Shown here: piece by piece, positions 45,013 to 64,000 of the stretch
Position numbering within the stretch: the first letter of the stretch is position 1
Layout: every line of letters starts with the position of its first letter
Assembly (NCBI GenBank): GCA_050273025.1
Contig: CP158635.1
Span: 12,090,001-12,154,000, forward strand
Length of the DNA stretch: 64,000 nucleotides
From: Cenococcum geophilum
Taxonomy: Eukaryota
Direction: 5' to 3'
Notes under the pieces: model-generated
What the model was told of the DNA's origin: nothing
Databases searched by the model: none
Seen by the model: the letters and a program-made list of their open reading frames with translations, nothing else
Position numbers and translations under genes: made by a program

Positions 45013-46278
45013 ATGCTGCTCCCGCGGCCATGGACTTGCCTGTGTCTGCTAGCAGGGAGCTTGACGGGGACTTGGGGTCTGGGATTGTCTGAGAACCCTG
45101 ATATCAAGGCCATATCAGTATGATCTTCCCTTATGCAAAGGACTAAGTGGAAGCTGATTTTGGGAATATAGCTACGGACACATAGTTTGGAGCCCGTGAG
45201 TTATCCCAGAATTCCACGGCTGCCTTTAGAGCCTATATTATCAAGGTTGAATTTGTAATCCTAACTCCAAGTTCTAGCCCTACCTCGATTCGGACATGCA
45301 AAGTCGTTGGTTCGATTTTGGTGGAGACACAATTGTTCGAACAGATAAATACATTCGTCTAGTGTCAGACAAGCCTTCAAGATCAGGATGGCTGTTCTCG
45401 CGAGTGCCACTGACGGCGACGAATTGGGAGGTACGCACGAAGCTCATACATGTTGCGCTTGTGGTATTGTTAAAATGTTAAGAATCTATGCTCACACGAC
45501 TACAGATCATCGTAGAATTCAAGATCCACGGGCAAGGAAACCTTTATGGCGACGGCATGGCAATGTGGCTCACCAAACAGCGAGCGCAACCGGGACCAGT
45601 CTTTGGATCCACAGACAACTTTGAAGGTTTAGGCATAATCTTTGACACGTACAAAAATAACAGGCCCGGTGTGGTGTTTCCGTATGTGATGGCAGTGAGC
45701 GGAGATGGTAACACAGTCTACGATAAGGATAATGATGGAAAGGCGAATGAATTGGCTGGATGCTCCGTACGCTTTCCCACGTCGCCTCTCACTCTACAAG
45801 GCCTCTGTCCTTAGTCCAATATCGAATCACTGACCGCTCCTAGGCCCGTGGCATTCGCAACCAAAATATTCCCACCAAAGCCCGTCTTACTTATTTCCAA
45901 GAGCAGTCTCTTAAACTTGACTTACAATACAAATCAGAAGACGAATGGACGGAGTGTTTCGAGATTCCAAATTTCAAAGTACCACCAGTCGCCTACCTTG
46001 GGTTCTCAGCCGAAACAGGCGAGCTCTCAGACCACCACGATATCATTTACGTCGGTACTAAGAATCTGTACCAACACAACACAGGGTCGAACAGTGGTAC
46101 TGCTGGACCGTCAACCTCAGGGAAGGGTGGAACAAAATTTGATAAGTATAACGCTGGGAAGAAAAAAGGGAGCTGGAGTTGGTTCTTTTTAAAGTTTGTG
46201 TTGTTTGGGCTGGCACTTACGGGGGCGTACGTGGGTTTCACCGTGTATCGGACGAAGAAGCGGGGATCAAGGTTCTAG
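45013..46278 (+). CDS. L-type lectin cargo receptor (VIP36/EMP47-like), multi-exon, type I membrane protein
   Basis: Signal peptide, RWFDFGGDTIVR, LYGDGMAMWLT, FEGLGIIFDTYKN, YLGFSAETGELSDHHDII, TM helix and ..KKRGSRF* tail. Confidence 0.9.
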
Positions 46279-46502: not shown

Positions 46503-47299
46503 CAGGGGTCCTCAGATTAGCTCTCACGTTCTCACCGACAACCACGCGCACCTCACCAACCATTTCCCCTCGCGGAGTCCAGAATCGGTTAGCTGCCGGG
46601 CTGCCTGTCCAAATTTGGCTTTTGACACATGGATATCATCACCGGACCAAACCACCGCCTCCTCCGTCCCACCTTGCCCTCCCCGCTCTAAAACGGCTAA
46701 GGGTAACCCACCACAACCCCACACGCCGAGCTGGCGACTCGCGCTCCGATTGAAAACTACTATGTAATGTCTCAGCAGCGACACGCGCGCCTCCCTGAGG
46801 ATGACGGGGCGCTTCGAGGAGGAAGGTGTCGTCACAGCGCGCTCGGCGGGGGGTAGATTGGAGGGTTGGATGGGCGGATCGGGACGGGCCTGAGAACCGC
46901 GGCGGGCTTTCAGTGGCTACGAACGCGCAGAGCGGAGGCCGCCCGTACTGCAGCGCGGGGCTGCGAGTACTCCCATCTGGTTTCTGTTCGGTGTCGCGCA
47001 TCGCGGGGACCTAAGCCTGATGGTGAAGGGCGCCACTTGCGTAGCTCGGTGAGATCTTCATCACTGGGATACTAGGGGGAGTTAGTTTGGAGAGGTTGCG
47101 GGGACTGGGGTGGGGGGCTGTACTCGCTGTTCGTGCGTGAGGGAAGAATGGATAGGCACGAGGTGAGGTTGAAGTACAGTAGACGCGATTTGCGAGGTGG
47201 GCGTTGTGGGTCGCCGAAGCTCTGACGGGGTTCTTGGCAATGTGGAATTTTTGAACATCACAAAGCTTCAATTCGGCTGTCACCGTATTCAGACCCCTG
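46503..47299. ncRNA. Candidate large structured non-coding RNA (class unknown)
   Basis: GC-rich intergenic tract closed by CAGGGGTC/GACCCCTG, with nested complementary segments. Sm-like AATTTTTG at 47246-47253. No credible protein. Confidence 0.4.
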
Positions 47300-47388
47300 C
47301 ACCGATAATGAATAAATGCGGCTTTCAAAAGTAATAGCTCTTATTAGCTAGTATATTCTTTTGTTACCCGAAGTGGCTCTGATTCGGC

Positions 47389-49057
47389 ATGTCATCCTGG
47401 ATATCCAGAGCCACGGCATCACATAATGCGCAGCTGGTCACCACGGCTGTAATTTCCGGTGTGGTTGTTGCAGGTGCCATTCTAGGTTTCCAAAAAGCAA
47501 GAAGGCAATATATGGTTGAGGACTTGAAGGCTTCTATTCCATCTATAAGTCAAGAGCACGTGGTAACTAGGGTAATTATCTGCTATTTCTTTCACGGATC
47601 ACAGAAGCTATATTGGCGACTAGTAATTGAAACTTGGTTTGACTGCATGGCTAACTTTCGAAATGAAGCTGACAAAATACGGTGCGGCTGCAGATATATT
47701 TGCACCCACTAAGGAAGACGAGCGAAGTGTGGCCCTTGCCGTGAGAGCTAGGCAGGGTGATTACGATAATGGTATAGCATTTACTTTTCAACCTATTTTA
47801 CCCTACTCCTATAGATTCTAACGACATTCCATAGATCTCATACTCGAGCAACTTGCCCGAAATCGAGTCTTCCTCACTGATGAAGGCCTTGCCAAACTCC
47901 GTTCCTCTTTCATTATCGTGGTTGGTTGTGGGGGCGTGGGATCTCACGCCACCGCAGCCCTCGCTCGCTCAGGGGTCTCAAAGATCCGCCTCATCGACTT
48001 TGACCAGGTTACTCTCTCTTCCCTGAACCGGCACGCAGTTGCCACTCTTGCAGACGTGGGTACGCCGAAGGTGCATTGCATTCGCAAGCGGCTTGAACAA
48101 ATTACGCCTTGGACGCACTTCGACTGCAGGAACGAGCTCTTCAATGAGGCTAGCGCAGAACGCCAATTATCTGCTTTGGATGGACACGAGCCTGACTACG
48201 TCATTGATGCCATCGACAATATTGACAGCAAAGTAGCATTGTTAAACTATTGCCACAAGCGCAGGGTCCGGGTGATCTCTTCAATGGGAGCAGGATGCAA
48301 ATCCGACCCTACCAGGATCCTCATAGGGGATATTTCAACGAGCACAGACGATCCGCTATCAAAATCTACAAGGCGACGACTCAGGGCCCTAGGAGTCAAA
48401 GATGGCATCCCGGTAGTCTTTTCGACCGAAAAAACTGGGCCCGGAAAAGCGCAGCTACTTCCTTTACCGGAAGACGAGTTCGCTAAAGGCAGCGTTGGTG
48501 AATTAGGAGTTCTTCCGGATTTTCGGGTTAGGATATTGCCCGTGTTAGGGACTATGCCTGCGATATTTGGACTTGCTGTCGCAAACCATGTTATTCTGGA
48601 TATTACAGGATATCCGCACGAGTACCTACCGTCAAAGGCACGGGACAAGATGTACGATGGTATTCTAGGCACTTTACAAGGTTTCGAAGAGCGGCTGGCG
48701 CGAGCGAGGGGCGAAGACACCCAGGGACTACGCATTCCCATTACGCACGACGACGTAGGTTATCTAATCGAAGAGGTCTATCATGGCCGCAGCGTCATTA
48801 GTGGCCTCTCCACTAGGCTGTGCTTAACTAGATGGAGAGCGCCTGAAGAGGGCTTTGTGGATAAGAGGACGCCCAGCCAGAAGAACTCCTTATTGCAAAT
48901 GAAAGATTTAGTTTGTATGACCAAGGAGGAAGCAGCCAAGCATGAAAAGGAAATTTTGAACGGAAAGAAGATGCCGGAAGATGTGTATGATGCCGGAACT
49001 ATAGAAGCGGTGAGAGAGAGAATGGAGGAAGAGGAGAGGTACGAGCGGTTCAGGTAA
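47389..49057 (+). CDS. TCD2: ThiF/E1-like tRNA threonylcarbamoyladenosine dehydratase (Tcd1/Tcd2 family)
   Basis: N-terminal TM, ILEQLARNRVF, VVGCGGVGSH, IDFDQVTLSSLNRH, IDAIDNID and DPLSKSTRRRL. Confidence 0.9.
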
Positions 49058-50559
49058 TGTATATATATGTACTCTTCTCTGCATAGGAAATAGCGACATG
49101 TACAAGTACAATACTCTCGCTCGACCCCTATGTTCTCGGACCTCGTAAATGTAATTCCCAATCTCTAGAAGATAAACTCTACCGTTGCCTTTTCTACAAA
49201 GTAAACCAAAGCTCAGATCATTTCCTGCAATCGAGCTTACCAGCAGAATGCAAATTTCCTTCTTTAATAATTGTAGTCCAGCCTAGCTAGGCTAACTATA
49301 AACCTACGGGGCCGCCGTGTCCAAGAGGGTACAGGCCAGTGCTGGGTGTGGGGGGACTAGGGTTCATGATATATAGAGATTTTCGGTGACTGTTTCGTCC
49401 AGTAAATAGGCAGTTCCAACCTGTCCCATTACTAAATTCAAACCCTAAGTTCACCGGAATAATATGTTATGATATCTCGCCACAAAATTGCCTTGTAGAG
49501 CCGTAAGGAATTGTATTAGCTATAAGAAGGGTATAGATCCTGGAAGGATGCTCTTCTTAGGACAATGTCTCGCGTAATATCAGCCGCTATATATGTTTTA
49601 CGAATGGTTAACTGTCACCAATGCCCATGCAAGGGAGCAGTTTCTCGAAGCTGCTGTGTGGCATTCGATCGGCACAAAAACCAAAGGCTTCATGTCGGGT
49701 ATCTGGAGGCCCAAGCCAAAGGAATGGGAGGAAATTGCGAATAGGTCAAAGGCGCTGTGAAATCCTATTATGGTTTTGAGTGCGTTGGAATAGTTCCAAA
49801 GTCTCAGTATTTCTCCCGATGAATCCGTGGCGCGGCAACATATTGTGAGGCCTACTAAATTTATTTTTAACAACAATAGTTAGCCAAGATCATTGCAGAA
49901 ACAAGGAAAGTATTAGCGCATAGGATAAGATAGTCTTCTTCTTTACCGCAGTAACTCTGTGTCCTGGGACACTGGTATCCATTTTCGGGTGGTTTACTCT
50001 GTTTTAAGCAGCGCTTGTCCCATGCGCTAAGCCCTAAGCAATATATCTCCCCCATTAAAACCTTTAACCTTATATATTTCTATATTTAATTACCTATTAC
50101 TAGTATAGCCCTATATTCCTAATTCTGAAAATGGGCTATCTATTATCCTACTAAATTATAATTAGTGCTTCACCTATTATATAGGATATATCTAGTAAAA
50201 GGGCTAAAGTAGTAAAGAAAAATCATTTACCTTTAATAATAAATAATATAAATAAGATTTTAATTTAATAGACAAGGTAAAGGTCTTTTAATTTAAAATA
50301 AAATTCTATAGCTTACTCTTTAGATTCTATAAGAATATTAAAAAATATCCTATTTAACTTATTAGAAATACCTTAAATAATAATATAAAGCTTTTTTTTT
50401 TTTAAATAAATTTTAGATAATTATTTATTATAGAAAAAGTTTAGTATTTTTTGGAAATTTAAATATTAAAGGTAACTGTATAATTACAGCAGCTGGTATA
50501 CCAAACGCGTATCTACGCGTTTGGTGTACCAACTACTCGCTTATAACTAATTAGGGGGG

Positions 50560-53500
50560 AGGGCGCGTTAGTATATAGACTACGTAGTCTACCTCAATAG
50601 AATTAAAAAGTCACCACCATCTAAAAGAGCATACGATACTATACGTATTTTGTGCCCCTGGATATAACTTACTTATATTATTAAGTTGATACAAATACTG
50701 ATTAGTGAGCGCGCATAGATCAGCAATTACTTGATACCTCCCCTGAGCGATACACGACAGCGACTACCCGTTTAATCCTAGTACGACCTACTAGAAGGTC
50801 GGAAGTTGGGGATTACGGACTATATCACCATCTCTATATACTTATTTAAGTCTTAGTACGGTTTACTAGAAGTTTATAAACGCGAATATAGACCTTTATG
50901 GAACCTCTTACCCTCCTATAAACTATTATGGACCTATTAATTGCCTTTACGGACCGTTATAAGACTTTATAGAACCCCCTGCCCTCCTATAAACTATTAC
51001 GGACCTATTAATTGCCTTTATAGACCATTATAAGACCTCTTAAACTATTACGGACCCGTTAATTGATTTTACGGACCGTTATAAGACCTCCTCTACCCGC
51101 TATAAGCTACTACTACCCGTTATAGCTTATATAGATATACTACGCTATATAATATAGTAGATATAAGCAAGCAAATTAATAAAGGTTAAAAGAAGTGGAG
51201 TTAGGGAGTCGACCTTACGTCTATAAACGGCGTTAATAACTATATTAATTTTAAAATCCTTAAATACGGACACTTTAAGCTTCTAAATAATAATCTATGG
51301 GAATAATATAAGGAAGACTTTGCGGACTTTACGGAAGCTATCTTTAAGACTTATAACCTTATAGCTACCTATAACCTATAAACCCTTCTACACAACTAAG
51401 GTGTATAGGTTAAAAAGGATAGGTAAGTTACTATTGCATGGTCTCTGTACAATATATTATATAAGGAGGACTAAACGGACTAGACTAAAGAGTAGATCCT
51501 AGACTATATTAAAACTAGTAAACTCTTTACCTTTTTTAAACTTAATAGGATCTTTAGTCTTATTAATAACCTATTTAACTAAATTCGTCCTATAGACTAA
51601 AGAGATCTTAAAATTAATCTTATAGGCTAAAGTATACCTAGTACCTAAGTTATAGACTATAATACCCCCGTAAACCAAAATATGGACTAAAACCCTTCTA
51701 TTACTTAAGTTATAGATCCGTAAACTACCTAAGTAAAGACCTATAGTAAGGAGCTAGCTAACCTAGCTAAGCTCTATACTAACAAATCTAAGTATAGCGG
51801 TGAAAACGATAATTTTAACTTTAAACTAACTATTTTTACGGACCTTTGCTAGAAGGCTGATATTCCTAAATAGGAGTTTAGCTAAGCCTACTCTACTATA
51901 CTACGTGGCCTAGCCCTTAACTACTATTATACTAACCTTAAGAGTAAACCCCTTAGTGCTCCCTTTAATAAGCTATGCGAGGCTATATATAACTACTTTA
52001 AAGGGCCAGAATATAAGCGTAATATTCTTACCTAATAGAATGTAATTAAGTTATAGATTATAATTGACAAGAATACCGAAAAATTGACTATAGAGTGCCT
52101 GTAAATTCTTATTAAAGACCTTTAATACCTATAGCACGGCCTTAATATTAAGCTTTAAATAGACGACTTTCTATATAATAAACTTATTACAGCTTACCAG
52201 GAAGTAAAGCCCTGTAAGTACGCCTATTATAAGCCTATAGACACCTTAACTGGCCTTATTCACGATTTATGGTCCTTTATTATAATATACAAAGTTTTAA
52301 ACCCGCTAGGTAGTACTTAAGCCTTTATTATAGACCTATAAAACCTATAAACTAACTTAGATGCCTACTTTACGGACCGCCGCTATTGCTAGCAGTACCT
52401 ATACTAACTAAGTCCTACCTATAACCCCCGTAGTAACTTCTATATAAAAGCATACCCCTATAAACGAACTAGCTAGAAGTGCTTTATATGCAGTAAGAAA
52501 GAATATTAGTTTATAAGGTATACCTAGGAAGAACATAATAAGTCTAAGAAGAGATTTAATAATTGGATTAATTAGTTTATTTTAGACTATAAAGGAAAGG
52601 AAGTAAAGGAGTCTCTTAACGAGTTAATGGAAGCCCTTATAATTAACTTTAACTTAAATACTTAGGAATAGGAGACCTTAGAGATGTTCTTAACTACTTT
52701 TAGACCTTTTACGGATAGCTAAGCCTTTAATATTATAACCGTATTAGCTAACCGCTCCTTTATATACTTAATTGCACCTAAAAACTAGCCTATAAGTATA
52801 CCTATTAGACCTATTATAGACGTTATAGACCGCGAATAGGACTTATTTGCATATATTACTATAGAATGCTATACCCCTAAAGAATTCTATAGCGTTATAA
52901 TTAATATAGGTGCCTCTAAGAAGTCTACTATAGGTTATAGATAATACCTTATATATAAGACCACTATAAATAATAATACGGATATTGATACTATGCAAAC
53001 TAGAGCTGTAAACGTCTAATTCGGCATCGGCTTAACTATATTAATTAGATTAGTTACAGCTAAGACTCTAATTGGCCTAGTTAACTTCTATATAGTAAAA
53101 GCAGATACCCCTTTTCTACTTTGCCTTATAGATATGGATAAGTTATAGGTTTACTATAACAATATTATAGACACCTTAATTAGCCCTGTAACTGCCCTAG
53201 GAAGTAAGTATATTACCTTACTAATTACGTGACGATTCGGACACCCATTCCTTATATAGGGAGAGACTTTATAGACCTATATTTAGGGATCTTTTAACTA
53301 TAACCCGTGCTACCTTACCAGTACTAAAATCTATCGCCTATACCGCTGTTTTGGCTACTTATTAGCCGAAAAGCTGTATAGAGTCCTTAAACGCTCTGGA
53401 CATGATGACGTTAATAGAAAGGTAATTAACTACCTAACTAAATACTGCTCCTTCTGCTAGAAATACGGACGTTCCCTATGCCGATTTAAGTTTACTCTTT

Positions 53501-54594
53501 ATAAAGACCTTAATTTTAACTACTTAGTATATATAGACATTATATACATTAATAGCAGCCTAGTATTATATATAATTGACGAGGTAACCCGCTATTAAGC
53601 CGCCCGTTGGTTATAAAACATATCTATAAAATATACTTAGGATATTTTACGGACCTGCTAGATTGATATATACGTTGGACCCCCTAAGTATATTACCTAT
53701 AACGCTAGTAGGAACTTTATTAGCAAGGAATTCTAATAGCATGCTATGGCTATAGCTATTTTAATAAAAGCCGTTCTAGTTAAGGCGTATTAGTCCATTA
53801 GGCTTATTAAGCAAGCTTACCTAGCTTTATAAAGAGCTTACTAGATTATTATGGACGAGTGTAAGGATATTTAAAAGGAACTAGCTTTATAGATAGCTGT
53901 AAAAGCTATTAATAATACCGCTGGCCCTAATGGACTAGTATTTACCCTCTTAGTTTATAGAGCCTACCTAAGGATAAGCAACCTAGGCCCTCTTACCCCG
54001 TCTATTATAGAACGAGTAGCTGTAATACGGAAAGTAATAGCCGAAATAGTTAAATTACGGGCTAAATAAGCTGTTAATAGCGCCCTATATTACTGTAACG
54101 GACCTAATACAACCTTAGTTTATAACCTCCTGCTTAATTCTAAAGTCCTTATATAGCGTAAGAGCGGCAATTAGACTGGACCTTATTGTTTACTAGCTGT
54201 AGAAGACGAAACGTGCTATATATAACTTTCTAGCAAACTAACTAGCTTTAGAAGCACGTCCATAAAACCCTATTTTTAGTTTAAAAATACCTATACTATT
54301 AAACTAGACGAACTAGAAGCACCTACTAAACTAGATAAACTAGAAGCACCTCTACCTACTCTAGAAGTCCCTTAAAAACCCACTAAACCTACTAAACCTG
54401 CTGTAAAGCATAGTTAAGGACGCCCCTAAAAGCACCATATAACTAAGAACCCTATAATAGAAAATCACTTAACCTTCGCAAGTATATTTATAAGGCAACC
54501 TCCGCCTATAGATATATTAGTTTTAGTATAGGAAAACCCTTTTACGGACTTAAGACGTAAAGAGATTAACGGACTACTTAAAAAGGGCGTCTTT
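50560..54594 (+). mobile_element. Ty1/Copia-type LTR retrotransposon, 5' part (gag, protease, integrase), RIP'd and interrupted at the start of RT
   Basis: KYSGENDNFNFKLTIFTDLC (gag), zinc knuckle KCFICSK, protease-like VIINIGAS (from IDTGAS) and integrase RNFISKEF. Ends KEINGLLKKGVF, so the order is IN before RT. The left boundary is approximate. Confidence 0.8.
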
Positions 54595-57500
54595 TATAAC
54601 GGAACCTTATAGCAAGAACTACGGTGGGCTCGTTAATAGGCTAGGTGTGTAGGAAATGCAAAGACAGTAGTTAACAACGTAATAACAACTAGTGGAGTGG
54701 TTGCCTAATAGATTAACTCCAATTATATTCTAAGAATTACTATAAGGAAGGAACTATCTAGGTAGGGACTAAGGGTCCTTAAATACACAACCGTACTCCT
54801 ATAAAATCCTTCTTATATGTGATATACGTCTTATATATAAGGTATATAAGTTCCTCTTATTCCTCTTATTTAATATGTAGCATATTATATAACCTTAGTT
54901 ACCATTCCTTATTATATAGTTCTACCGGTTCCATCTTAGACTGTGCCTAAATTAACTAACTAGCTTCTTCCAACTCCTCTCTTAGTAGTTATAATATTAT
55001 ACTTAAAGCGTCCGTAATACTATTTCCCTCCTCTTTATCTTTATCCTTAAAGATTTAAAACATCTCTAAGTTATTTACTAGAGGTATAATATCCGTCTAA
55101 TTAATTTAGTTAATATTGTTACTTATTATACCTAAAGCACTTTCTTCTTTATATGCCCAACGTCGTGCCCGCACTATTACTGCGATATTATTTCTTAGTG
55201 AGATTATACCGTCTCCGTATTCTTATTGTGCGAAAAAGGGGTTAGTTTATATTACATTAATAAGCCCTTCCTTATAATAACCATCCTCTTACTTAAAGTG
55301 TACTAAAGCGAATATTTGTTTGTTCTGTGACGTTCGCTTTACCTTTAATGCTAAATATACGCGACCTATTACTCTTAATAGTCGTCTAGTTCCCTAATTA
55401 ATTTGTCTTAGGGTCTTATATTTAATCTGCTGCTGCACGGCTAGATAGTAAACTATCTTAAGCCCTTACTAAGTTAGAATGTTCTTAAGATACGGAATAG
55501 AAGGCTCTAGATACTCGCATCGCGGCGTTTACTTAATTACTTCGCCTTAAAAAGGTCCGTAAGAAGGTTTGTTTTAAGGAGTGGAAACTTATAAAATAAG
55601 GTCTTTAGGAACTAGGTAATAAGAGAACTAACTTTCCTCTTATAGTAAAGGGAATAACTTTAAGTAGTTTGGCAGTCGCTCTTTCTAGGTCCCCCTTAGG
55701 TAACTTATTCTTTAATACTCCTTCCTTATTAATATTGCCTAACCTATTTTCTTTTAATACTCCTATACCTTTCCTATAGCGTTCTTTAAATTCTTTAGTA
55801 GTTCCTAGGTAGTCTTATTATAGCCTATCCACTTTACTTTATACTATATTTTATTATTAACATCCTTATAACTAACGATCTTTAAAACTTACTATTTATC
55901 CTTTTCTTATCCTTTATATGTGTCTGCTTTATAGACTGGTGGCTTAATATCTCTATATACTAGCTCTAGCATTGCAATATGCTATATAGGGTAGATTTTT
56001 ATTTTAGCTAGTAGGTTTAACTTAAATATAACTAGTAAAATCCTTTGCGTGATTTTAAAAGGTCCTAGTCTAACGTAGTCTAACTTTTTACTTAGTTGTT
56101 GACTCTTAAAATTTTTGTATAGTAGCTATACTTTATCTCCCTCCTTAAGATCTGGTCCCTTAGATCTCTTAGTATCATAGTACTTCTTTATTCTTTACTA
56201 TACTATCTTAGCTATTTCTATAAGGTTCGTATAAAGATTTATTAAAGTCTCTATCCTTTACTTAGCTCTACTACTCGTTTTCTTTACTTATTATAGCGAT
56301 AATAAGGTTCTTAGCTTATATCCGTAATTTATTTTAAATAGTAACATACCTATTCCTTCTTATGGTGTTGCATTATATATAAACTATATAATTAGTAATA
56401 GTAATACCTAATTGTTCTGTGTATGATTAATATAATGCCTTAGATACTGCTCTAGTGTCTAATTTAATCTTTCCGTTTGACCGTCTATCTGTGGATAATA
56501 TGCGGTAGAAGTTACTGCTCGAACTCCTTACTCTGCTAAGAATACTTCTTAGAATGCTGCTACGAATCTTAAATCTCTATCCGATATAATTTTGTTTAGT
56601 GCTCTATATCTTATAAACACTTCTTTAATATAGATTCTAGTAACATCTTCTGCTAAGATTTCTTCCGTATATGCTATAAAGTATCCCTACTTTATAAGCT
56701 TATCTACTATTACTAAAATTACGTTATAATCTTATTTAGTAATAGGATCTCTTAACTTTGGCAACTTAATAATAAAGTCCTATAATATAACCTCCTATAG
56801 TCTCTCTGGTATTTTAATAGGTTATAGCCCTCTATATGGCTTATACCTTATTAGTTTATTTCTTTAGCAATTTAAACACTCTTTAGTGACCTTCTTAGCT
56901 ATTCTTTAAATTCCGTCAATAATATACTCCTCCTAGAGTCTTAACACTAAGCTTATAGCTCTATTATATTCTTAAGTTAGTCCCTTATAGAAGTCTTCCA
57001 CGAACTCCTCTGCTATGCTTTTTAGGATATACCTTACTTCTTGGTTTTTGTATATCTCTATCTGTAGATCTTCTAGCTATACTTCTAGAATCCTTTATGC
57101 CTAAAAGCTTTCTAGTATCTTGTAGACTTTTTCTAATTCTTTCTCTTAAGTTGCTATAATCTTTAGATGATTATACCTAATTAATCTATCTATATCTTTT
57201 CGCAATAAAGCCTCTAATAGCTTTTTATTGTTTTATAGTTTAGCTTTTCTGCTTAGAGCATCTGCTCGTGTATTCTCTGTACCCTTAGTATACTAAATCT
57301 TAAAATAGTATTCTGCAAGTATCTCCGCCTATTTAACCTATCTTTAGTTAAGTTTCTTTATTATTAGGAATCCCGTTAGGTTTTTATAATCCGTTTTAAC
57401 TATAAATAGTTTCTCTATACCTTATAAGAATGCTCTTTATTCCTTTAGTACTATAACTATTCCTAGTAACTCCTTATTATAGATATTATAGTTTAGTTCT

Positions 57501-57951
57501 GGTAGTATTATCTTCCGACTATAGTATACCACTAGGTGCCATCTATCTGGATGCTTTTATATAAAATATGCTCCTAGTATAAAGTCTAATATATCTATTT
57601 CTACAACTGTCTTTAGTCCTAGTTAATAGATCTTAAGAACTGGCTCCTAGGTAAACAATTCTTTAATCTTCCTAAAGAGTTCCTACTATTTCTCTCTCTA
57701 TACCTATAGTTCTTCTTTTTTTATTAATCTTATAAACGGCTTAATGTCCTTTAACTATTAAGCTATAAACCTTCTACAGTAATTGCAGAACCCTAGAAAT
57801 GACCTTAGCTACATTACATTTTCTGGTTCTTACCAATTTACTATAGCCTTAATTTTCTTTAGATCTATGCTAAGTTAGCCTGGTTTAATAATAAATCTAA
57901 CAAAATTGGTCTTCCTAGTGAAGAACTTGTATTTCTTAATTACTACCAGCA
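54595..57951 (-). mobile_element. Ty3/Gypsy retrotransposon 3' half (RT end, RNase H, integrase, 3' LTR 54595-55019) nested in the Copia
   Basis: LTR TATAACGG...CCGTAATA (RIP'd TG..CA) with a purine tract on the minus strand at ~55020-55035. Minus-strand SFLGFCNYCRRFI, KELLGIV, NTRADALSR and YYPQIDGQTER motifs. Confidence 0.85.
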
Positions 57952-60093
57952 TATCACGAAGTGAGTATAAGCGACGATAATATATAGTAAGGTAGATATT
58001 ATTAAGCTATATACATAAACTGTATAAGGAGGTCAAGACGTTACGTAAGGAAAGAAGGTAGGAAAACGGGAAGAAAGGGCATATATTGTTAACTTAGTTG
58101 CTTAGTTAACACGTGCATAGGCAAAATAGGGTTTAGGTCGTGGTCCTAGCAGAACTTAACAGAATTTGGTAGAACTTAGCAGAATATAGCAGAATGCCGT
58201 AAATTGCCGTTAGATTGCTATTAGATTGCCATTAAATTGCCATTTCACGGTTAGTCTCTAATTGCTAAGTTGGTAGAAATAGGTAAACGTATATAAGGTA
58301 TTACGGGGGTATCCCGTAACAGTACCCCCCCTTTAAACTTAAGCTTCTGCGAGATAGGGCTGTAGTAGTTCTAGGTAAAGTTTGTAAAAGTCTTCTGCGG
58401 CTTATATAAGTCCTATAGAGTTAACGGGTTCCTATAAGGACTTAGTAAAGCCTCTCCATTTTATAAGATATATATATTAGCGTTTTTATTTATTATACTT
58501 AATATTATTAATTCTTTTAATAAAGTACTCGTTCTTACTATCTACTTTAACTAGTAGGGGAGGGTCTTATATCTATCTAGGTAGGGCGTCTAATACGGGG
58601 GTAGTAGGGTGGAGGACTGACGTATAGAATATAGGGTAGATTTTAACTGTATTAGGGAGCTTTAGTTAGTAGGCATAAGGAGAGATAACCTTTTTAACCT
58701 TATAAGGGCCAGCGTTCTTCTAATTAAGTTTCTTAGTAGGTTATTTCGTATTTAGATTTCTTATATCTAGCCAAATAAAATCGCCAATTTAGTAGGCCGG
58801 TGCTGGGGTTTGTTTCTTATTCGCTGCGGCTTTATAGACAGATTAAGCTCATATTATCTTATTAGTAAGGAACTGTTATAGTTCCTCTATCTTCTTTATA
58901 AATTTATTTACTTCTACAACTTATAAGGCGTAATAAGTAGGGTAAGAAACATTACTAAAGGGTTTAAAACTTATTTGTGGGTGCTAGCCGTAATTAGCTA
59001 GAAACGGGGAGACTTTTATAGTTTCTAAGACGGAATTATTTATAGTAAACTCGGCGAATATAAGCCAGTTAATTTAGTTATCCTATAAATACGACGTGTA
59101 TATCTAAATATACTATTCCATTATAGTATTTACGCGTTCCGTTTGGCTATCCGTTTCTAGGTAATATATAGTAGACAATAGTGCTTTAATGCGGAGTTAA
59201 GTAGTTAGTTCTTTCTAGAATGCTAAGATAAACTAGCTGCCTTTATCGGAGATAATTATTTTAGGGAGTCCGTAGAGTTTCCATACGTAATCTAGAAATA
59301 GTTAGGTAATAGTAGGCGTTAATATATTAGGGCAGGCGATTAAGTGTCTTATTTTAGATAGTTGGTCTATAACTACCATAATATTTATACAGCCTCTACT
59401 ATTAGGAAGGTCAATAATAAAGTTAATTAAGATATCCTTCTATCTTTGGTTTAGAATAGGTAGTGGCTTTAAAAGACCGTTATATATCTTATACGAGGCT
59501 TTAGCTCATTAGTAGGTATAGTAGCTAGAGACGTACCTTCGTATTATATTATACATATTCGGCTAATAATACTCCTATTAGAGTAGTTCTAGGGTCTTTT
59601 CTTAGCCTAGGTGGCTAGTAATAGGTAGATTATATATATGTTTAAGGAGTTTAAGCTTAAGCTTATTATAATTAGGGATAACTAGACGGTTCTAGTAATA
59701 TAAGCGGTTTCCACAGGCTTCGCATTTACTTAAAAAAATCTTTTTAGAGCGTTTAATACCATCTTATATTAGCTTAAGCGTCTCTTAAATAAACTTGTTA
59801 TTTAAATATTCGTTAACTATAATCTATTTAATTAATTAATTAGTTATTTTAAGGACGTGTACCATAAGATCTTTAATGGGAGGGTTAAATAGTTTAGGGC
59901 GAAGCAGGGTCTGATTTTAGTAAGAGTGCGCTTCTTCTAGGGCTAGCGCGTCTTGCGAGCGTTAGGTTAGGGCATTAGGCTTCTAACCTTAGACGCCTAG
60001 GTAGTATATAATTAAGAATCGGAAACGAGATAGATATTCTAACCAGCGGGCCTAACGATAACTTAGCTGTTTTGTGGTTGTGAAGTACTATAG

Positions 60094-61560
60094 CTCTACG
60101 TAGCCGAAATAAGTGTCGGTTTGGGGCACGTGCGCACCCACCAAAATCATAGTTCACGATCACAATACCATAATACAGCCAAATCAATTCAATATCGAGT
60201 CATCTGCCCGTCAGCCCTAATGCACTCATGTAGGCGCTTCGTGTACCAGCTGTACATCTCTGCAATCTTCTCCTGATCCACTTGGTTCTCCTAAACATCT
60301 ATAAAACGCTCTAATGCTGTGTCCTCTTCCACGCGCTTTGAATGGAATTTCTTCTTAATAGGATGGGCTAAGGACTCTATAATTGATAGATCTAGTGATA
60401 AACCAGGCAATGTTAGAAGCTTTAAGTCCCATTCCTTTACCCAGGCTAAAGACTCCCTTGATTTATGCGCTGAATCTGCATCCTGGCATAAAGTAATTCC
60501 CTTAATATTAAACTTTAAAAGAAGCTATGGTAACACCTGCTTGGTATAGGCTTTTAAATTTATCTTACCCACCTGGTTATCCACCTTATATAAGAAGAAC
60601 TTTTTTTAGGTCCTGCTAATAACAATAAAGACATTAAACAGTTTAAGATACTTCTTCTCTTAGGCCTTCTCCTTTTCATCCTTTTTAGTAACCCCCTTCT
60701 TCCTATAAATATTCTGTGGTAAATAGCGGTAAAGATTACTACTTCTTCTCTTAATTCTATGGGTTTCTTCTACACCTAAACTAAAGTGATATTTATTATA
60801 AAAAGCAATATTATTCCAGTCTTTAGGATAGGGTCTTTTTTCTAGCTATAAATAGTACCAATTCTTTCTTCTATCTGCCTGCTCCTAGTTAAGCCACTTC
60901 TCTTCTTCTATCTTTGCATTAATATACCCTTTATCCTTTTTTATGGCTCTTTAAATTAGCTTATTTCCAAGAGGTTAGCAACCTGTTCTTTAAGTTGGAA
61001 CCATTAGAAGATCTTTATAATTTAGGGCCTTTTAAACAATAGTCTGCTATAGGGCTAATTTTGAGTCTTAATTGAGATTGGGGTCGTCTAAATACACGGC
61101 AATAGCGTGGGTATCTTCCTTTGTAAGAGCTCGATTTCTCCCTCTTATTTCTAGCCTAAAATTATATATAGTTCTGCATTGCTTTAAGGCCACAATACGT
61201 TGCTAAGAGTGCTCTATAATTCCAGTAGCCTGCTATATAATAGCCGGAGGAATGGCCTTGCCTAGTAATTGGCCAAAGATTTTGGCGTAGAGAACTCCTA
61301 TGCGTGGAGGAGTCTTTAGATGCTTATTTTCCCCAGCATTATAGTATAATTCTGGGGGTGGGGTAAAGTGTTTTGCCCGTATTTTTTAGGATGCAGGCTC
61401 CTTGGTAACTTGGGTTATAATTAGTAATTGCAGCGAACGAATTTGGGTGCGAAATGGTGGTGTTGTAAGGTTTGTTATGATTGTGAGGCATGCTCAGGGG
61501 GCTTTGTTTGGGTGGGGCGCGCACGTGCCCCAAACCGACACTTATTTCGGCTACGTAGAG
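60094..61560 (-). mobile_element. Tc1/mariner (IS630-Tc1, DDE) DNA transposon with ~40-bp TIRs, inserted in the Gypsy RNase H
   Basis: Perfect TIR CTCTACGTAGCCGAAATAAGTGTCGGTTTGGGGCACGTGCGC. Relic CDS ~61339-60189 has LCQDADSAHKS and LPGLSLDLSIIE (SPDLNPIE-like) and ends DGQMTRY*. Confidence 0.9.
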
Positions 61561-62938
61561 TATAGGTTCTTATAGTCGCTAAGGACCTTAATTAGAAATC
61601 CAGCGCCTTCTAGTTCGGGTCGCCATTGTTTAAAATACCTAATAATAGCTAACAATTCCTTATTATAGATCTCGTAGTTATATTTGGCTAGGCTTAGTTG
61701 TTTTAAGAAGTATACTATAGGGTGTAATACTCTATCCTTATTATATTGAGATAGGATGCCTCTAGTGACGTAGTTAGATAAGTCGGCTTCTATAATACTT
61801 ATTTAGTTTAGGTTAAAGTATTAGAGTACGGGCGTAGTAGTAAATATAACCTTTAGATAGGCAAAGGCCTTCTTATATTCCTTATTAAAGACAAAAACTT
61901 TATCCTTTTAGGTTAGAGCTATAAGGGGTAAAACCAGGGCGGAGAAGTTATTAATAAACTATTAGTAGAAATTAGCAAATCCTATAAAGGCTCTTACGTC
62001 CTTAATATTCTTAGGTTCTTACTAGTTTACAATTACTTCGACTTTCTTTAGGTCTATTTATATACCGTTTATAAAAATAAGGAGTTTAAGGTATAGGACT
62101 TCCGTTTTATAGAACTTATATTTATCTACATCTAATTATAGACCAGCTCTATATAGGGCTTATAGGATAAGGTTAACGTGTTTCCAATATTTGGTTAGGT
62201 TATTACTGTATATTAGGATATTATTAATATAAGCAGTATAGAAGATGTCTAGGTAGGGGCGTAGGGTGTTATTTATATAATATTAAAACGAACTTGGGGC
62301 GTTTATAAGGCCAAAGGGTGTTACTAAGTACTTAAATAGTCTATATTGGGTACGAAATGCAGTAAGCTATTTATCCCCTTTTATAATACGGAGACGGTTA
62401 AATATAGAGATAATATCAAGCTTTATGTAGTAATAAGCCTTACTTAGTTAGTTTAGTATCTCCTATATTAACGGGATTAGATATTAATTCTTAATAGTAA
62501 CGGCGTTAAGAGCTTAGTAGTCTATATAAAAGCATAGACCGCCGCCAGGTTTCTTAACGAAGATTACTAGTACGGCTATAGGTGATAAGCTTGCTCTAAT
62601 AAATCCTTTACTTAGGTTCTTATCTAAATACTTTTATAGTACTTAGAGTTCGTTTTAAGACATCCCATATAAGGGTCTAAATCTAGGCTACTTTCCTTCT
62701 TTAAGTACAATCTTATAGTTATACGATCGGTGTTCCGGTAGCTTATTAACTTCCTTTTATAAGAATGCCTCTAGGCGGTTATAGTACTCTACTAGTACCT
62801 TTATAGCAGGGTTGGTGTGCTTCTTTAGTGCTAAGGCCTTCTTAATATCAGCTATAGTAACAGTAAAGATCGTATATTTAGGTTTTTTAGCAAGTTACGC
62901 TAATGAAGTAGCTTTAATTATGCGGATATCTAGGGTAC

Positions 62939-63381
62939 TATAAGAGTATATATATTAGGTCCCGCCGCGCTTGCGACAAGTTCGCAAGCACTCTCAGTCT
63001 TTTTAGCCGTATGGTGACGTAGAGGCGGGCTACGTTACAATTGTGCTTGCGAACTTACCGGGGCTAGGTATTATAGGTTCGATCCCTAGCGGTTACTTCG
63101 CTCTAGTACAGTCTAACACATATCTATGCAATAAGGCGGGTTGGCTAAGTCCGATCGCTTATGTTACTGGGGACTAACTAATATAGTGATACTCTTGGCG
63201 TTTAATCCCTATGGCGCGAACAGGCGCATAGAGGAATCCCTGCGAGCGCTTAAGGACGAGCGCGTAGAGGAGAGGGCAATTGTAAGAGTATATATATTAG
63301 GTCCCGCCGCGCTTACAACAAGTTCGCAAGCACTCTCAGTCTTTTTGGCCGTATGGCGACGTGGAGGCGGGCCACGTTATA
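62939..63381 (+). mobile_element. TRIM (terminal-repeat retrotransposon in miniature): 101-bp LTRs, ~240-bp non-coding interior, 5-bp TSD GGTAC
   Basis: LTRs 62939-63039 and 63281-63381 (TGTAAG..GTTACA, partly RIP'd); GGTAC on both flanks; PPT AGAGGAGAGGG before LTR2. Confidence 0.88.
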
Positions 63382-64000
63382 GGTACCGAGCTCATTTGGC
63401 TCGTCCGTAGTTTCTTATTTAGGTTTAGGTTTAGTGTTAGGTACGGAGTTAGTGTCAGATTTAGGTTTAGGTTCTTTAAGTATTCTTTTTATTATAGAAT
63501 ACTAGTCCTTTTAGTAGTTTTATATGCTAAGCTTAAGTTTCTATTTAGTTTAGGGCGGTGTAGTGCTTAGTAATAACTTATAGAGCTTAGTAGAATTTTT
63601 AGATCCTTGGTGGGTGTTAGTAGAATTCTTATATTAGTAGAATTCGGTAGAAATCTTATATTAGTGGAATCTAGTAAATTCTTTAGATTTTGGTTCTAGG
63701 TCTAAGTAGTAAGTTATAAAGCACTTCTACTTATAACGGGAGGCGGTAAATAGAAGCTTAAGGTTATCCTAATTAATAATCACCTTATATAGCTTTATCT
63801 AGGGTTATTTAAGGATTACTAAGTAACCTAGGGTGGTAACGAAAAGCTTAATTAGTTCTTTATAGTTTAGGTATTAAAGTCTTAGGGTTACCACGTGGGT
63901 AATACGGCCTAAAATGGTGCGTTTACTATTAAATCTAAATACGTTAATATGCCGGTTAAGGGAAATTAGGGTAAAACTATTATCTTATATAAAGATCTTA

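Follow-up and report, generated by a model that had tools for sequence, protein, structure and literature searches.

A conserved three-module box C/D RNA in Cenococcum geophilum, apparently undescribed, with predicted guides for U2 and U4 snRNA methylation

Results

An abundant minus-strand RNA between two plus-strand genes

The window analysed here is a 64,000-nt stretch of Cenococcum geophilum DNA, and the tract under study (46503..47299) lies between a VIP36-like L-type lectin gene and a ThiF-family (TCD-like) gene, both on the plus strand. The last exon of the lectin gene (45844..46278), identical to a C. geophilum protein, converges on the RNA described below and its 3′ UTR reads peter out by ~46420; the main exon frame of the ThiF-family gene (47822..49057) diverges from it, with reads starting near 47330. 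A DNA search of the 178-Mb, 7-contig assembly returned the tract as its 1 match, making it single copy at this level of search, as an earlier note on this DNA had supposed. That note had proposed a plus-strand, self-complementary RNA of ~800 nt, and the motifs it relied on are present on re-reading: CAGGGGTC (46503-10) with GACCCCTG (47292-99), CCCTCGCG (46567-74) with CGTGAGGG (47136-43), CCGTCCC with GGGACGG, CGCCGAGC (46724-31) with GCTCGGCG (46841-48), and the Sm-like AATTTTTG (47246-53). In relatives, the ThiF gene mostly lies on the opposite side of the lectin gene. Elsewhere in the window, 50001-64000 is AT-rich (GC 29-39%) with strong skew changes and probably consists of decayed repeats.

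We aligned 4 of the 24 listed RNA-seq runs, among which X19 alone is raw and stranded; it derives from another strain, and ~12% of its reads were used. First mates in X19 fell on the minus strand for both flanking plus-strand genes and on the plus strand for the tract. Because this orientation is opposite to that of the neighbours, the tract RNA is a minus-strand transcript, which overturns the plus-strand transcription previously argued from G-U pairs. The stranded reads define a non-coding RNA body of ~563 nt, from 47071 to ~46509, preceded by a short leader exon of ~30 nt (47124..47152, minus strand, 3′ end GCGA) and a 52-nt GT..AG spliceosomal intron (47072..47123, minus strand; branch CTAAC at 47085-81) that stops 7 nt short of the first box C. 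The leader joint is spanned by 38 reads from 15 starts in X19 and by a contig of run X8. 5′ ends pile up at 47152 (8/24 molecules; depth 28 at 47145), upstream of which a few reads extend, and at 47071, where part of the pile consists of clipped spliced reads.

Peak depth in X19 reached ~3,400 over the RNA versus ~100 (106) over the lectin gene, a ~30-fold excess, and 29 over the ThiF gene. Depth along the RNA varied 30-50-fold, from 51-82 over 46510-46782 through 620 in the next interval to 2,928 and 2,231 over 46874-47055 and then 137, with modules 2 and 3 (see below) the lowest; it then fell to 3.3 in 47147-47237 and to zero in 47238-47328. The transcribed span is thus only ~46509-47152 on the minus strand, short of the proposed ~800 nt, and both the arm at 47292-99 and the Sm-like motif lie outside it. 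In this one raw-read run, 3′ ends accumulated at 46847 (422/1091), 46745 (36/109) and 46511 (5/10). The last two fall at or just past a box D, 46745 being the final base of D2 and 46511 lying 1 nt beyond D3. The pile at 46847 is at the site of a strain insertion, which causes alignments to be clipped. Stranded RNA-seq, suggested earlier as a check, reveals an abundant discrete RNA of ~563 nt, on the minus strand. In the other runs, X20 covered the lectin gene and left the RNA without coverage, and X15 showed a gap at 47004-47268. The deep segment 46847-47071 (module 1 plus linker 1) could be a stable ~225-nt product or could reflect priming or reverse-transcription bias against the G-rich strand. 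Only ~180 nt (47153-47330) separate the RNA start from the first ThiF-gene reads, a compact bidirectional promoter.

The RNA matches no Rfam family and is not a well-known structural RNA

Across the window, Rfam models gave 0 matches at the gathering score, and the E-value mode gave 6 weak matches far below the cut-off. Models for U1, U2, U4, U5, U6, U3, RNase P, MRP and SRP all matched elsewhere in the genome and none in the tract, with the best U1 match (67.5 bits) slightly below its cut-off of 69.5. The prior exclusion of U1-U6, U3, SRP, RNase P and MRP accordingly holds, each having its own gene elsewhere; we dropped RNase P, MRP, SRP, U1 and U3 as identities on this ground, RNase P having been considered because of plus-strand look-alikes of CR-I/IV/V. 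Telomerase RNA was rejected as well: the RNA has no TTAGGG template and the Sm-like motif is outside it. The RF02462 telomerase model matched nowhere in the genome and is uninformative. The earlier view of the tract as a discrete, apparently undescribed, structured non-coding RNA was right.

The structure itself differs from the one first proposed. On the plus strand the 797-nt tract folds no better than chance (z 0.16); the minus strand of the tract folds modestly better (z -2.19), and the mature 565 nt reach z -0.96. Two of the six pairings listed in the earlier note are compatible with the minus-strand model, namely 46887-80/46671-64 and 46848-41/46731-24. Among the others, TCACCGG turns out to be a box C (C3), box C2 is partly covered by GTGTCGT, and CGTGAGGG belongs to the leader exon. 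The observed asymmetry between a C/A-rich and a G/T-rich half is real, and corresponds to two linkers that form a rod with module 2 at its tip. Folding the strain variants did not settle the choice of strand.

Three box C/D modules are joined by variable linkers

The lead that proved correct was a side remark on minus-strand box motifs: two GTGATGA (47064-58 and 46642-36) and a CTGA (46515-12) are present as described. From reads, alignment and constrained folding, we divide the RNA body (46509..47071, minus strand) into three box C/D modules with variable base-paired linkers. Module 1 (46971..47069) contains C1 GUGAUGA (47064-58), the guide GAACAGA (46989-83) and D1 CAGA (46979-76), closed by a UCCC/GGGA stem. 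Linker 1 (46841..46970), C/A-rich on the RNA and the 5′ strand of the rod in the constrained fold, is conserved in neither length nor sequence. It leads to module 2 (46741..46840), with C2 GUGACGA (46835-29), D′ UCGA (46817-14), a C′-like CUGAGA (46775-70), the guide GUAGUUUUCAAU (46760-49), D2 CGGA (46748-45) and a GCGC/GCGC stem. Linker 2 (46649..46740), placed by alignment and constrained fold, is G/U-rich on the RNA and supplies the 3′ strand of the rod. In module 3 (46507..46648), C3 GUGAUGA (46642-36) is followed by a D′ guide, AAGCCAAA (46621-14), a degenerate D′ UUGG (46612-09), an inner stem (46605-599/46543-37), C′ UGAGAA (46534-29), the guide GAGAGCU (46525-19) plus AAU, D3 CUGA (46515-12) and a closing stem GGUCC/GGACC. 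All five features are on the minus strand.

Each of the three C/D pairs is thus closed by a flanking stem, with C-to-D spans of 88 nt (C1 47064 to D1 46976), 90 nt (C2 46835 to D2 46745) and 130 nt (C3 46642 to D3 46512); C2, D1, D2 and D′3 (UUGG) are degenerate. Stems next to cognate C/D pairs averaged 4.0, 3.25 and 5.25 bp versus 0.9-2.9 bp for mixed pairs (10-12 members), a comparison that is partly circular, as the boxes were picked by eye and partly by their stems. In module 3, 90.5% of 169 alignment cells were paired, against 24-49% in slid controls, and 5/13 pairs showed two-sided changes; its covariation score was reached by 0/500 shuffles, and the pair count alone by 43/500. Covariation among relatives, another check suggested at the outset, favours the closing stems of the three modules, with the figures just given for module 3; the linkers of the rod are not conserved. 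A single snoRNA running from C1 to D3 with a closing stem UCUCACCGA/UCGGUGAGA was rejected in favour of the C1-D1 and C3-D3 stems, which have more base pairs and show covariation.

The module fold (-192 kcal/mol) lies 42 kcal/mol above the unconstrained minimum (-234 kcal/mol), so proteins would have to impose it. Strain variants break linker pairs in 7/10 paired changes, and this, together with the fold cost, indicates that the linkers are only loosely constrained.

The modules are conserved among Dothideomycete-like loci

A 27-sequence lectin alignment led to 177 confirmed metagenome loci, of which we retrieved 80. These we searched with a 3′-module model trained on the window sequence and 12 of the 80. 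RNA homologues lay near the lectin gene in 19/80 fungal loci at E <= 6e-7 (12 of the 19 belong to the training alignment); in many of the loci that gave no match, the sequence is too short or synteny has been lost. Judged by nearest lectin, all 19 are Dothideomycete-like, with two Cenococcum-like and the others Pleosporales-, Dothideales- or Capnodiales-like or unnamed. In Leotiomycete-, Sordariomycete- and lichen-like loci the RNA was absent from the lectin neighbourhood, which is the scope of this search as opposed to whole genomes, and a GTDB scan gave no lectin locus.

Full-length members measure 567-953 nt and occur in either orientation relative to the lectin gene. Six-mers common to at least 7 of 10 non-redundant members numbered 48, compared with a mean of 2.2 and a maximum of 7 in 200 shuffles, and the conserved parts are the three box C/D modules, not the rod, whose linkers vary in length and sequence. 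The leader is recognizable too, with GCGA ahead of a GT donor in 10/15 homologous loci examined and a branch-like CT[AG]AC just 5′ of box C1 in 12/15. The tract therefore belongs to a conserved RNA family of ~560-950 nt that is real and is expressed in C. geophilum. In most loci only a few bases lie between the intron end and box C1, perhaps reflecting splicing-coupled RNP loading. Module 1 of L044, L045, L063 and L070 has a common GCACGUA element, partly antisense to the 5′ end of U4, in no clear D+5 register.

The guides are predicted to target U2 and U4

A C/D antisense element usually comprises 10-21 bp upstream of D or D′ and selects its target in the +5 register. We applied this D+5 rule to snRNAs, rRNAs, U3, SRP, RNase P and MRP from the C. 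geophilum genome alone (12 RNAs, 7,304 positions, 684 of them snRNA), using a family-mean score with G-U at half weight. Four snRNA positions ranked first among the 7,304: U2 C39 for D1 (10 members), and U4 A66 for D2, U2 G18 for D′3 and U2 G2 for D3 (12 members each). The naive chance that 4/4 guides fall in snRNA is 0.094^4, or ~8e-5, for boxes that were chosen post hoc. A scan of every D-like tetramer against the snRNAs recovered the same four sites at fixed relative positions, U2 C39 in 13/15 members, U4 A66 in 15/15, U2 G18 in 14/15 and U2 G2 in 13/15; the same scan also gave U5 92 and U6 38 in 15/15, these matches being weaker and secondary and due mostly to the D2 guide.

Pairing is strongest for module 2, whose guide forms 12 pairs with U4 A66 in C. 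geophilum and 14 in L021. The three U2 guides form 7-8 pairs each in C. geophilum, short of the usual length, and 11-12 at most in relatives: the module 1 guide makes 7 bp around U2 C39, with an A.A mismatch at -3, and up to 12 pairs in L037, and the D3 guide reaches 11 bp in L044/45/63. Margins over rRNA are narrow, with D′3 tied with LSU 3021 (8.58 each), D2 ahead of SSU 922 by 0.67 and D3 ahead of LSU 126 by 0.25; in C. geophilum alone, two LSU sites (-12.7 and -13.3 kcal/mol) form more stable duplexes with the D3 guide than U2 does (-11.8 kcal/mol). U6 G54 was tried as a D3 target and discarded (6 bp, -7.0 kcal/mol), as were two adjacent 9-mers complementary to 18S nt ~390-405, which are not conserved in relatives.

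We take U2 C39, U4 A66, U2 G18 and U2 G2 to be the counterparts of human Cm40, Am65, Gm19 and Um2. All of these are listed as human 2′-O-methyl sites, together with U5 Um41 (PMC7960923); S. pombe U2 has Cm40 (PMC5733568), and in N. crassa a U2 methylation guided by a C/D RNA has been verified (PMC2780460). In 5/7 Pleosporales-like loci, the D′ guide of module 2 has U5 U39 as its best or tied snRNA match, which is the human Um41 position when mapped by loop position from published context (PMC7960923). This U5 guide is absent in C. geophilum, where the best snRNA score was 5, and none was found in the other groups. Here the D′ slot of module 2 (46828-46818) reads ACACCUUCCUCC, varies among strains and lacks an snRNA target, apparently a lost guide. 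On these complementarities we predict that the three-module RNA guides ribose methylation at the U2 and U4 sites.

The D3 guide may face the second nucleotide of U2

In 16/19 loci, as well as in the window, the spacing between GAGAGCU and box D3 is precisely 3 nt. The two intact U2 genes examined have a common sequence only from AGCTCTC, that is, from the A after a pyrimidine run; U4 and U5 likewise start at an A after pyrimidines, and the complement to U2 in helix II of C. geophilum U6 ends at that same A. From the gene starts and the end of the U6 complement, the fifth base of the D3 guide therefore most likely faces nucleotide 2. As the U2 5′ end is deduced from gene sequence, "G2" is a predicted position; the N. 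crassa numbering (A31) puts the start two bases earlier and would make the site G4 (PMC2780460). We suggest that the unpaired AAU of the D3 guide is partly accounted for by pairing with the flank of box C3.

These features raise the possibility, which we advance tentatively and consider rather less than even in likelihood, that the D3 guide directs Nop1 to the second nucleotide of U2, yielding a cap-2-type mark placed by a guide RNA, with one three-module RNA supplying several U2, U4 and U5 methylations. The catalytic K-D-K triad is missing from the CMTR-like proteins of fungi (PMC3113572); human Am1 and Um2 are described as exceptions to RNA-guided methylation (PMC7960923). The nucleotide concerned, U2 position 2, is the one that CMTR2, the protein-only enzyme used in animals, would modify. 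G2 methylation, if true, would be a new route to a cap-2 structure. Against this reading, the target is preceded by no more than a single nucleotide and the cap. Moreover, three Dothideales-like loci (L035, L036, L073) lack the D3 register, for which reason the D3 guide may chiefly serve as an anchor for G18. In L073 (2253-2290) the D3 guide has changed and best matches U2 C27 (8.5), a possible target switch, and the guides of L035 and L036 have changed too.

Discussion

We consider it highly probable that the tract is transcribed as a unit of its own, from the minus strand, into a box C/D guide RNA whose three snoRNA-sized modules direct methylation of U2 and U4. Under this model, Pol II would make a capped leader that is then spliced, Snu13, Nop56, Nop58 and Nop1 would bind each module, and 3′ trimming would halt at the D boxes. 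Nop1 would then 2′-O-methylate U2 C39 from module 1, U4 A66 from module 2 and U2 G18 from module 3, and in Pleosporales-like relatives module 2 would also aim Nop1 at U39 in the U5 loop. With its two guides, module 3 could hold the two strands of U2 stem-loop I simultaneously (nt 1-7 and 15-22) and thereby open this structure, with the D3 guide acting at least as an anchor and possibly in G2 methylation.

The guide function would be the same if the 563-nt RNA were an intermediate, a polycistronic exonic precursor cut by an RNase III-like activity in the linker rod to release three snoRNAs of ~90-135 nt. We regard this arrangement as a serious contender, albeit one we would not bet on. Module sizes are ordinary for snoRNAs (88, 90 and 130 nt versus 80-135 nt, PMC5824354), linker lengths vary freely, fungal C/D clusters are on record (PMC2780460), and 3′ ends pile up at D2 and, at 46847, near the 5′ edge of module 2. 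The latter pile, however, is the one at the strain insertion, both linkers are covered by reads, and the deepest stretch (2,200-2,900x, 46874-47055) joins module 1 to linker 1; the clusters described in N. crassa are mostly intronic (PMC2780460).

It is improbable, in our judgement, that the modules aim at rRNA (18S A922, 25S G3021 or G1931) and not at snRNAs. These sites have second or tied scores and comparable duplex energies, but they require G-U pairs or mismatches at guide positions that are invariant in the family. We prefer the snRNA reading because the invariant bases are Watson-Crick to snRNA and because relatives lengthen the snRNA pairing (D3 in L044/45/63, D2 in L021). Furthermore, the longest Watson-Crick run to the rDNA unit is 10 nt, at chance level, with none of at least 11 nt, and none of the three positions is known to be among the methyl sites listed for yeast or human. 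A non-catalytic chaperone in the manner of U3, U8 or snR190, holding the U2 5′ end, the branch-site region and U4 during snRNP assembly, seems just as doubtful. The U2 elements do cover U6-pairing regions, the boxes are degenerate, and Dothideales-like L073 keeps the U2 5′-end element out of D+5 register; yet the exact +5 register of four guides onto human-methylated positions would be superfluous for a chaperone.

We give practically no credence to a plus-strand ~800-nt Sm-class rod or telomerase-like RNA. The DNA does contain its 8-bp terminal inverted repeat and an Sm-like motif, but reads in the plus-RNA orientation make up ~1.5% of all reads at the depth peak and are absent from both proposed ends, the plus strand folds at chance level, and an insertion interrupts the terminal repeat in X15. 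The same verdict falls on a small spliced protein gene or a plain UTR or promoter: there is a 120-codon minus-strand frame (ATG at 47001) in a transcript with an intron, but a 1-nt insertion after 46971 shifts the frame in X19 (3,100/3,490 reads) and X15, homologues conserve only boxes and guides, and the RNA is transcribed against the direction of both neighbouring genes and, in relatives, stands either way round relative to the lectin gene.

Returning to the three-module guide RNA, its closest functional parallels are human SCARNA2 (mgU2-25/61), SCARNA9 (mgU2-19/30) and SCARNA17 (mgU12-22/U4-8), which likewise carry several C/D domains on one long RNA and have snRNA targets, here predicted. 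They have in common with the fungal RNA the U2 G19 position and a short leader. A stable full-length RNA with internal processing is another trait of this class; coverage of the fungal RNA in X19 is continuous but very uneven, with internal end piles that may be signs of such processing. A 5′ cap and Cajal-body localisation also mark the class, and linker 2 of the fungal RNA is G/U-rich. SCARNA2 and SCARNA17 are independently transcribed (PMC5612246), as is the fungal RNA. It differs from them in having three modules instead of two, another target set and a spliced leader. Because the SCARNA2, SCARNA9 and SCARNA17 Rfam families matched neither at the gathering score nor among the 6 weak matches, we do not file it with them; it is apparently an undescribed fungal box C/D snRNA guide, like these RNAs in working and not homologous to them.

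Module 2 also recalls SCARNA5/U87. U87 carries an H/ACA insert, which has no counterpart in the 90-nt module (there is no room for one and no H/ACA Rfam match). SCARNA5/U87 guides U4 Am65 and U5 Um41 (PMC7960923), the predicted sites of module 2 in Pleosporales-like relatives, whereas C. geophilum lacks the U5 guide. Drosophila scaRNA:MeU2-C41 and mouse MBII-19, both guides for U2 Cm40, address the equivalent of the C predicted for module 1 but are stand-alone; orthologues of the fly RNA were reported as not found in other species (PMC5733568). Among Pezizomycotina C/D snoRNAs (N. crassa CD1-55, the A. fumigatus Afu series, snoStrip), box motifs and module size are alike, and Nc CD29/Afu-191 also targets U2, at the A30 position (PMC2780460), but the longest family there is 200-300 nt (PMC5824354) versus ~563 nt here. 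None of the targets listed in the parts covered of two surveys is U2 G19, C40 or N2 or U4 A65 (PMC2780460, PMC2377427), and by eye none of the N. crassa snoRNA sequences given in the former has these guides in register (PMC2780460). The Rfam families of the Afu series gave no match; Afu-222 (535/250 nt), Afu-67, Afu-484 and afu-254 may yet be homologues by sequence. The literature covered, outside of which fall most subscription papers and the snoStrip, A. fumigatus and bioRxiv supplements, contained no fungal multi-module snRNA guide and no cap-adjacent guide.

The family adds a conserved, abundant and unannotated RNA to a large fungal class, and offers candidate fungal guides for U2 Gm19, U2 Cm40, U4 Am65 and U5 Um41, none of which we found in the literature searched. 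Multi-domain snRNA guides are known from animals; with a three-module fungal form, their ancestry may be deep or the resemblance may be due to convergence. Both Um2 and Gm19 have been reported as essential in human extracts (PMC7960923). In a haploid, one deletion could strip three to five marks at once, making the role of snRNA ribose methylation in splicing testable.

The genes of the presumed targets have peculiarities of their own. Judging from sequence, the C. geophilum U2 genes appear to contain one (L097, C4) and two (L099, C3) spliceosomal introns and the U6 gene (L096, C5) one. At ~4.364-4.368 Mb of C7, a U1 variant without a normal 5′ end (L008) is found 3.5 kb from a U2 variant (L098) whose 5′ end and branch-site region are altered; the two are either pseudogenes or variant snRNAs. 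The rDNA unit (L013) has insertions in the 3′ end of 18S and in the LSU, which we take to be group I introns.
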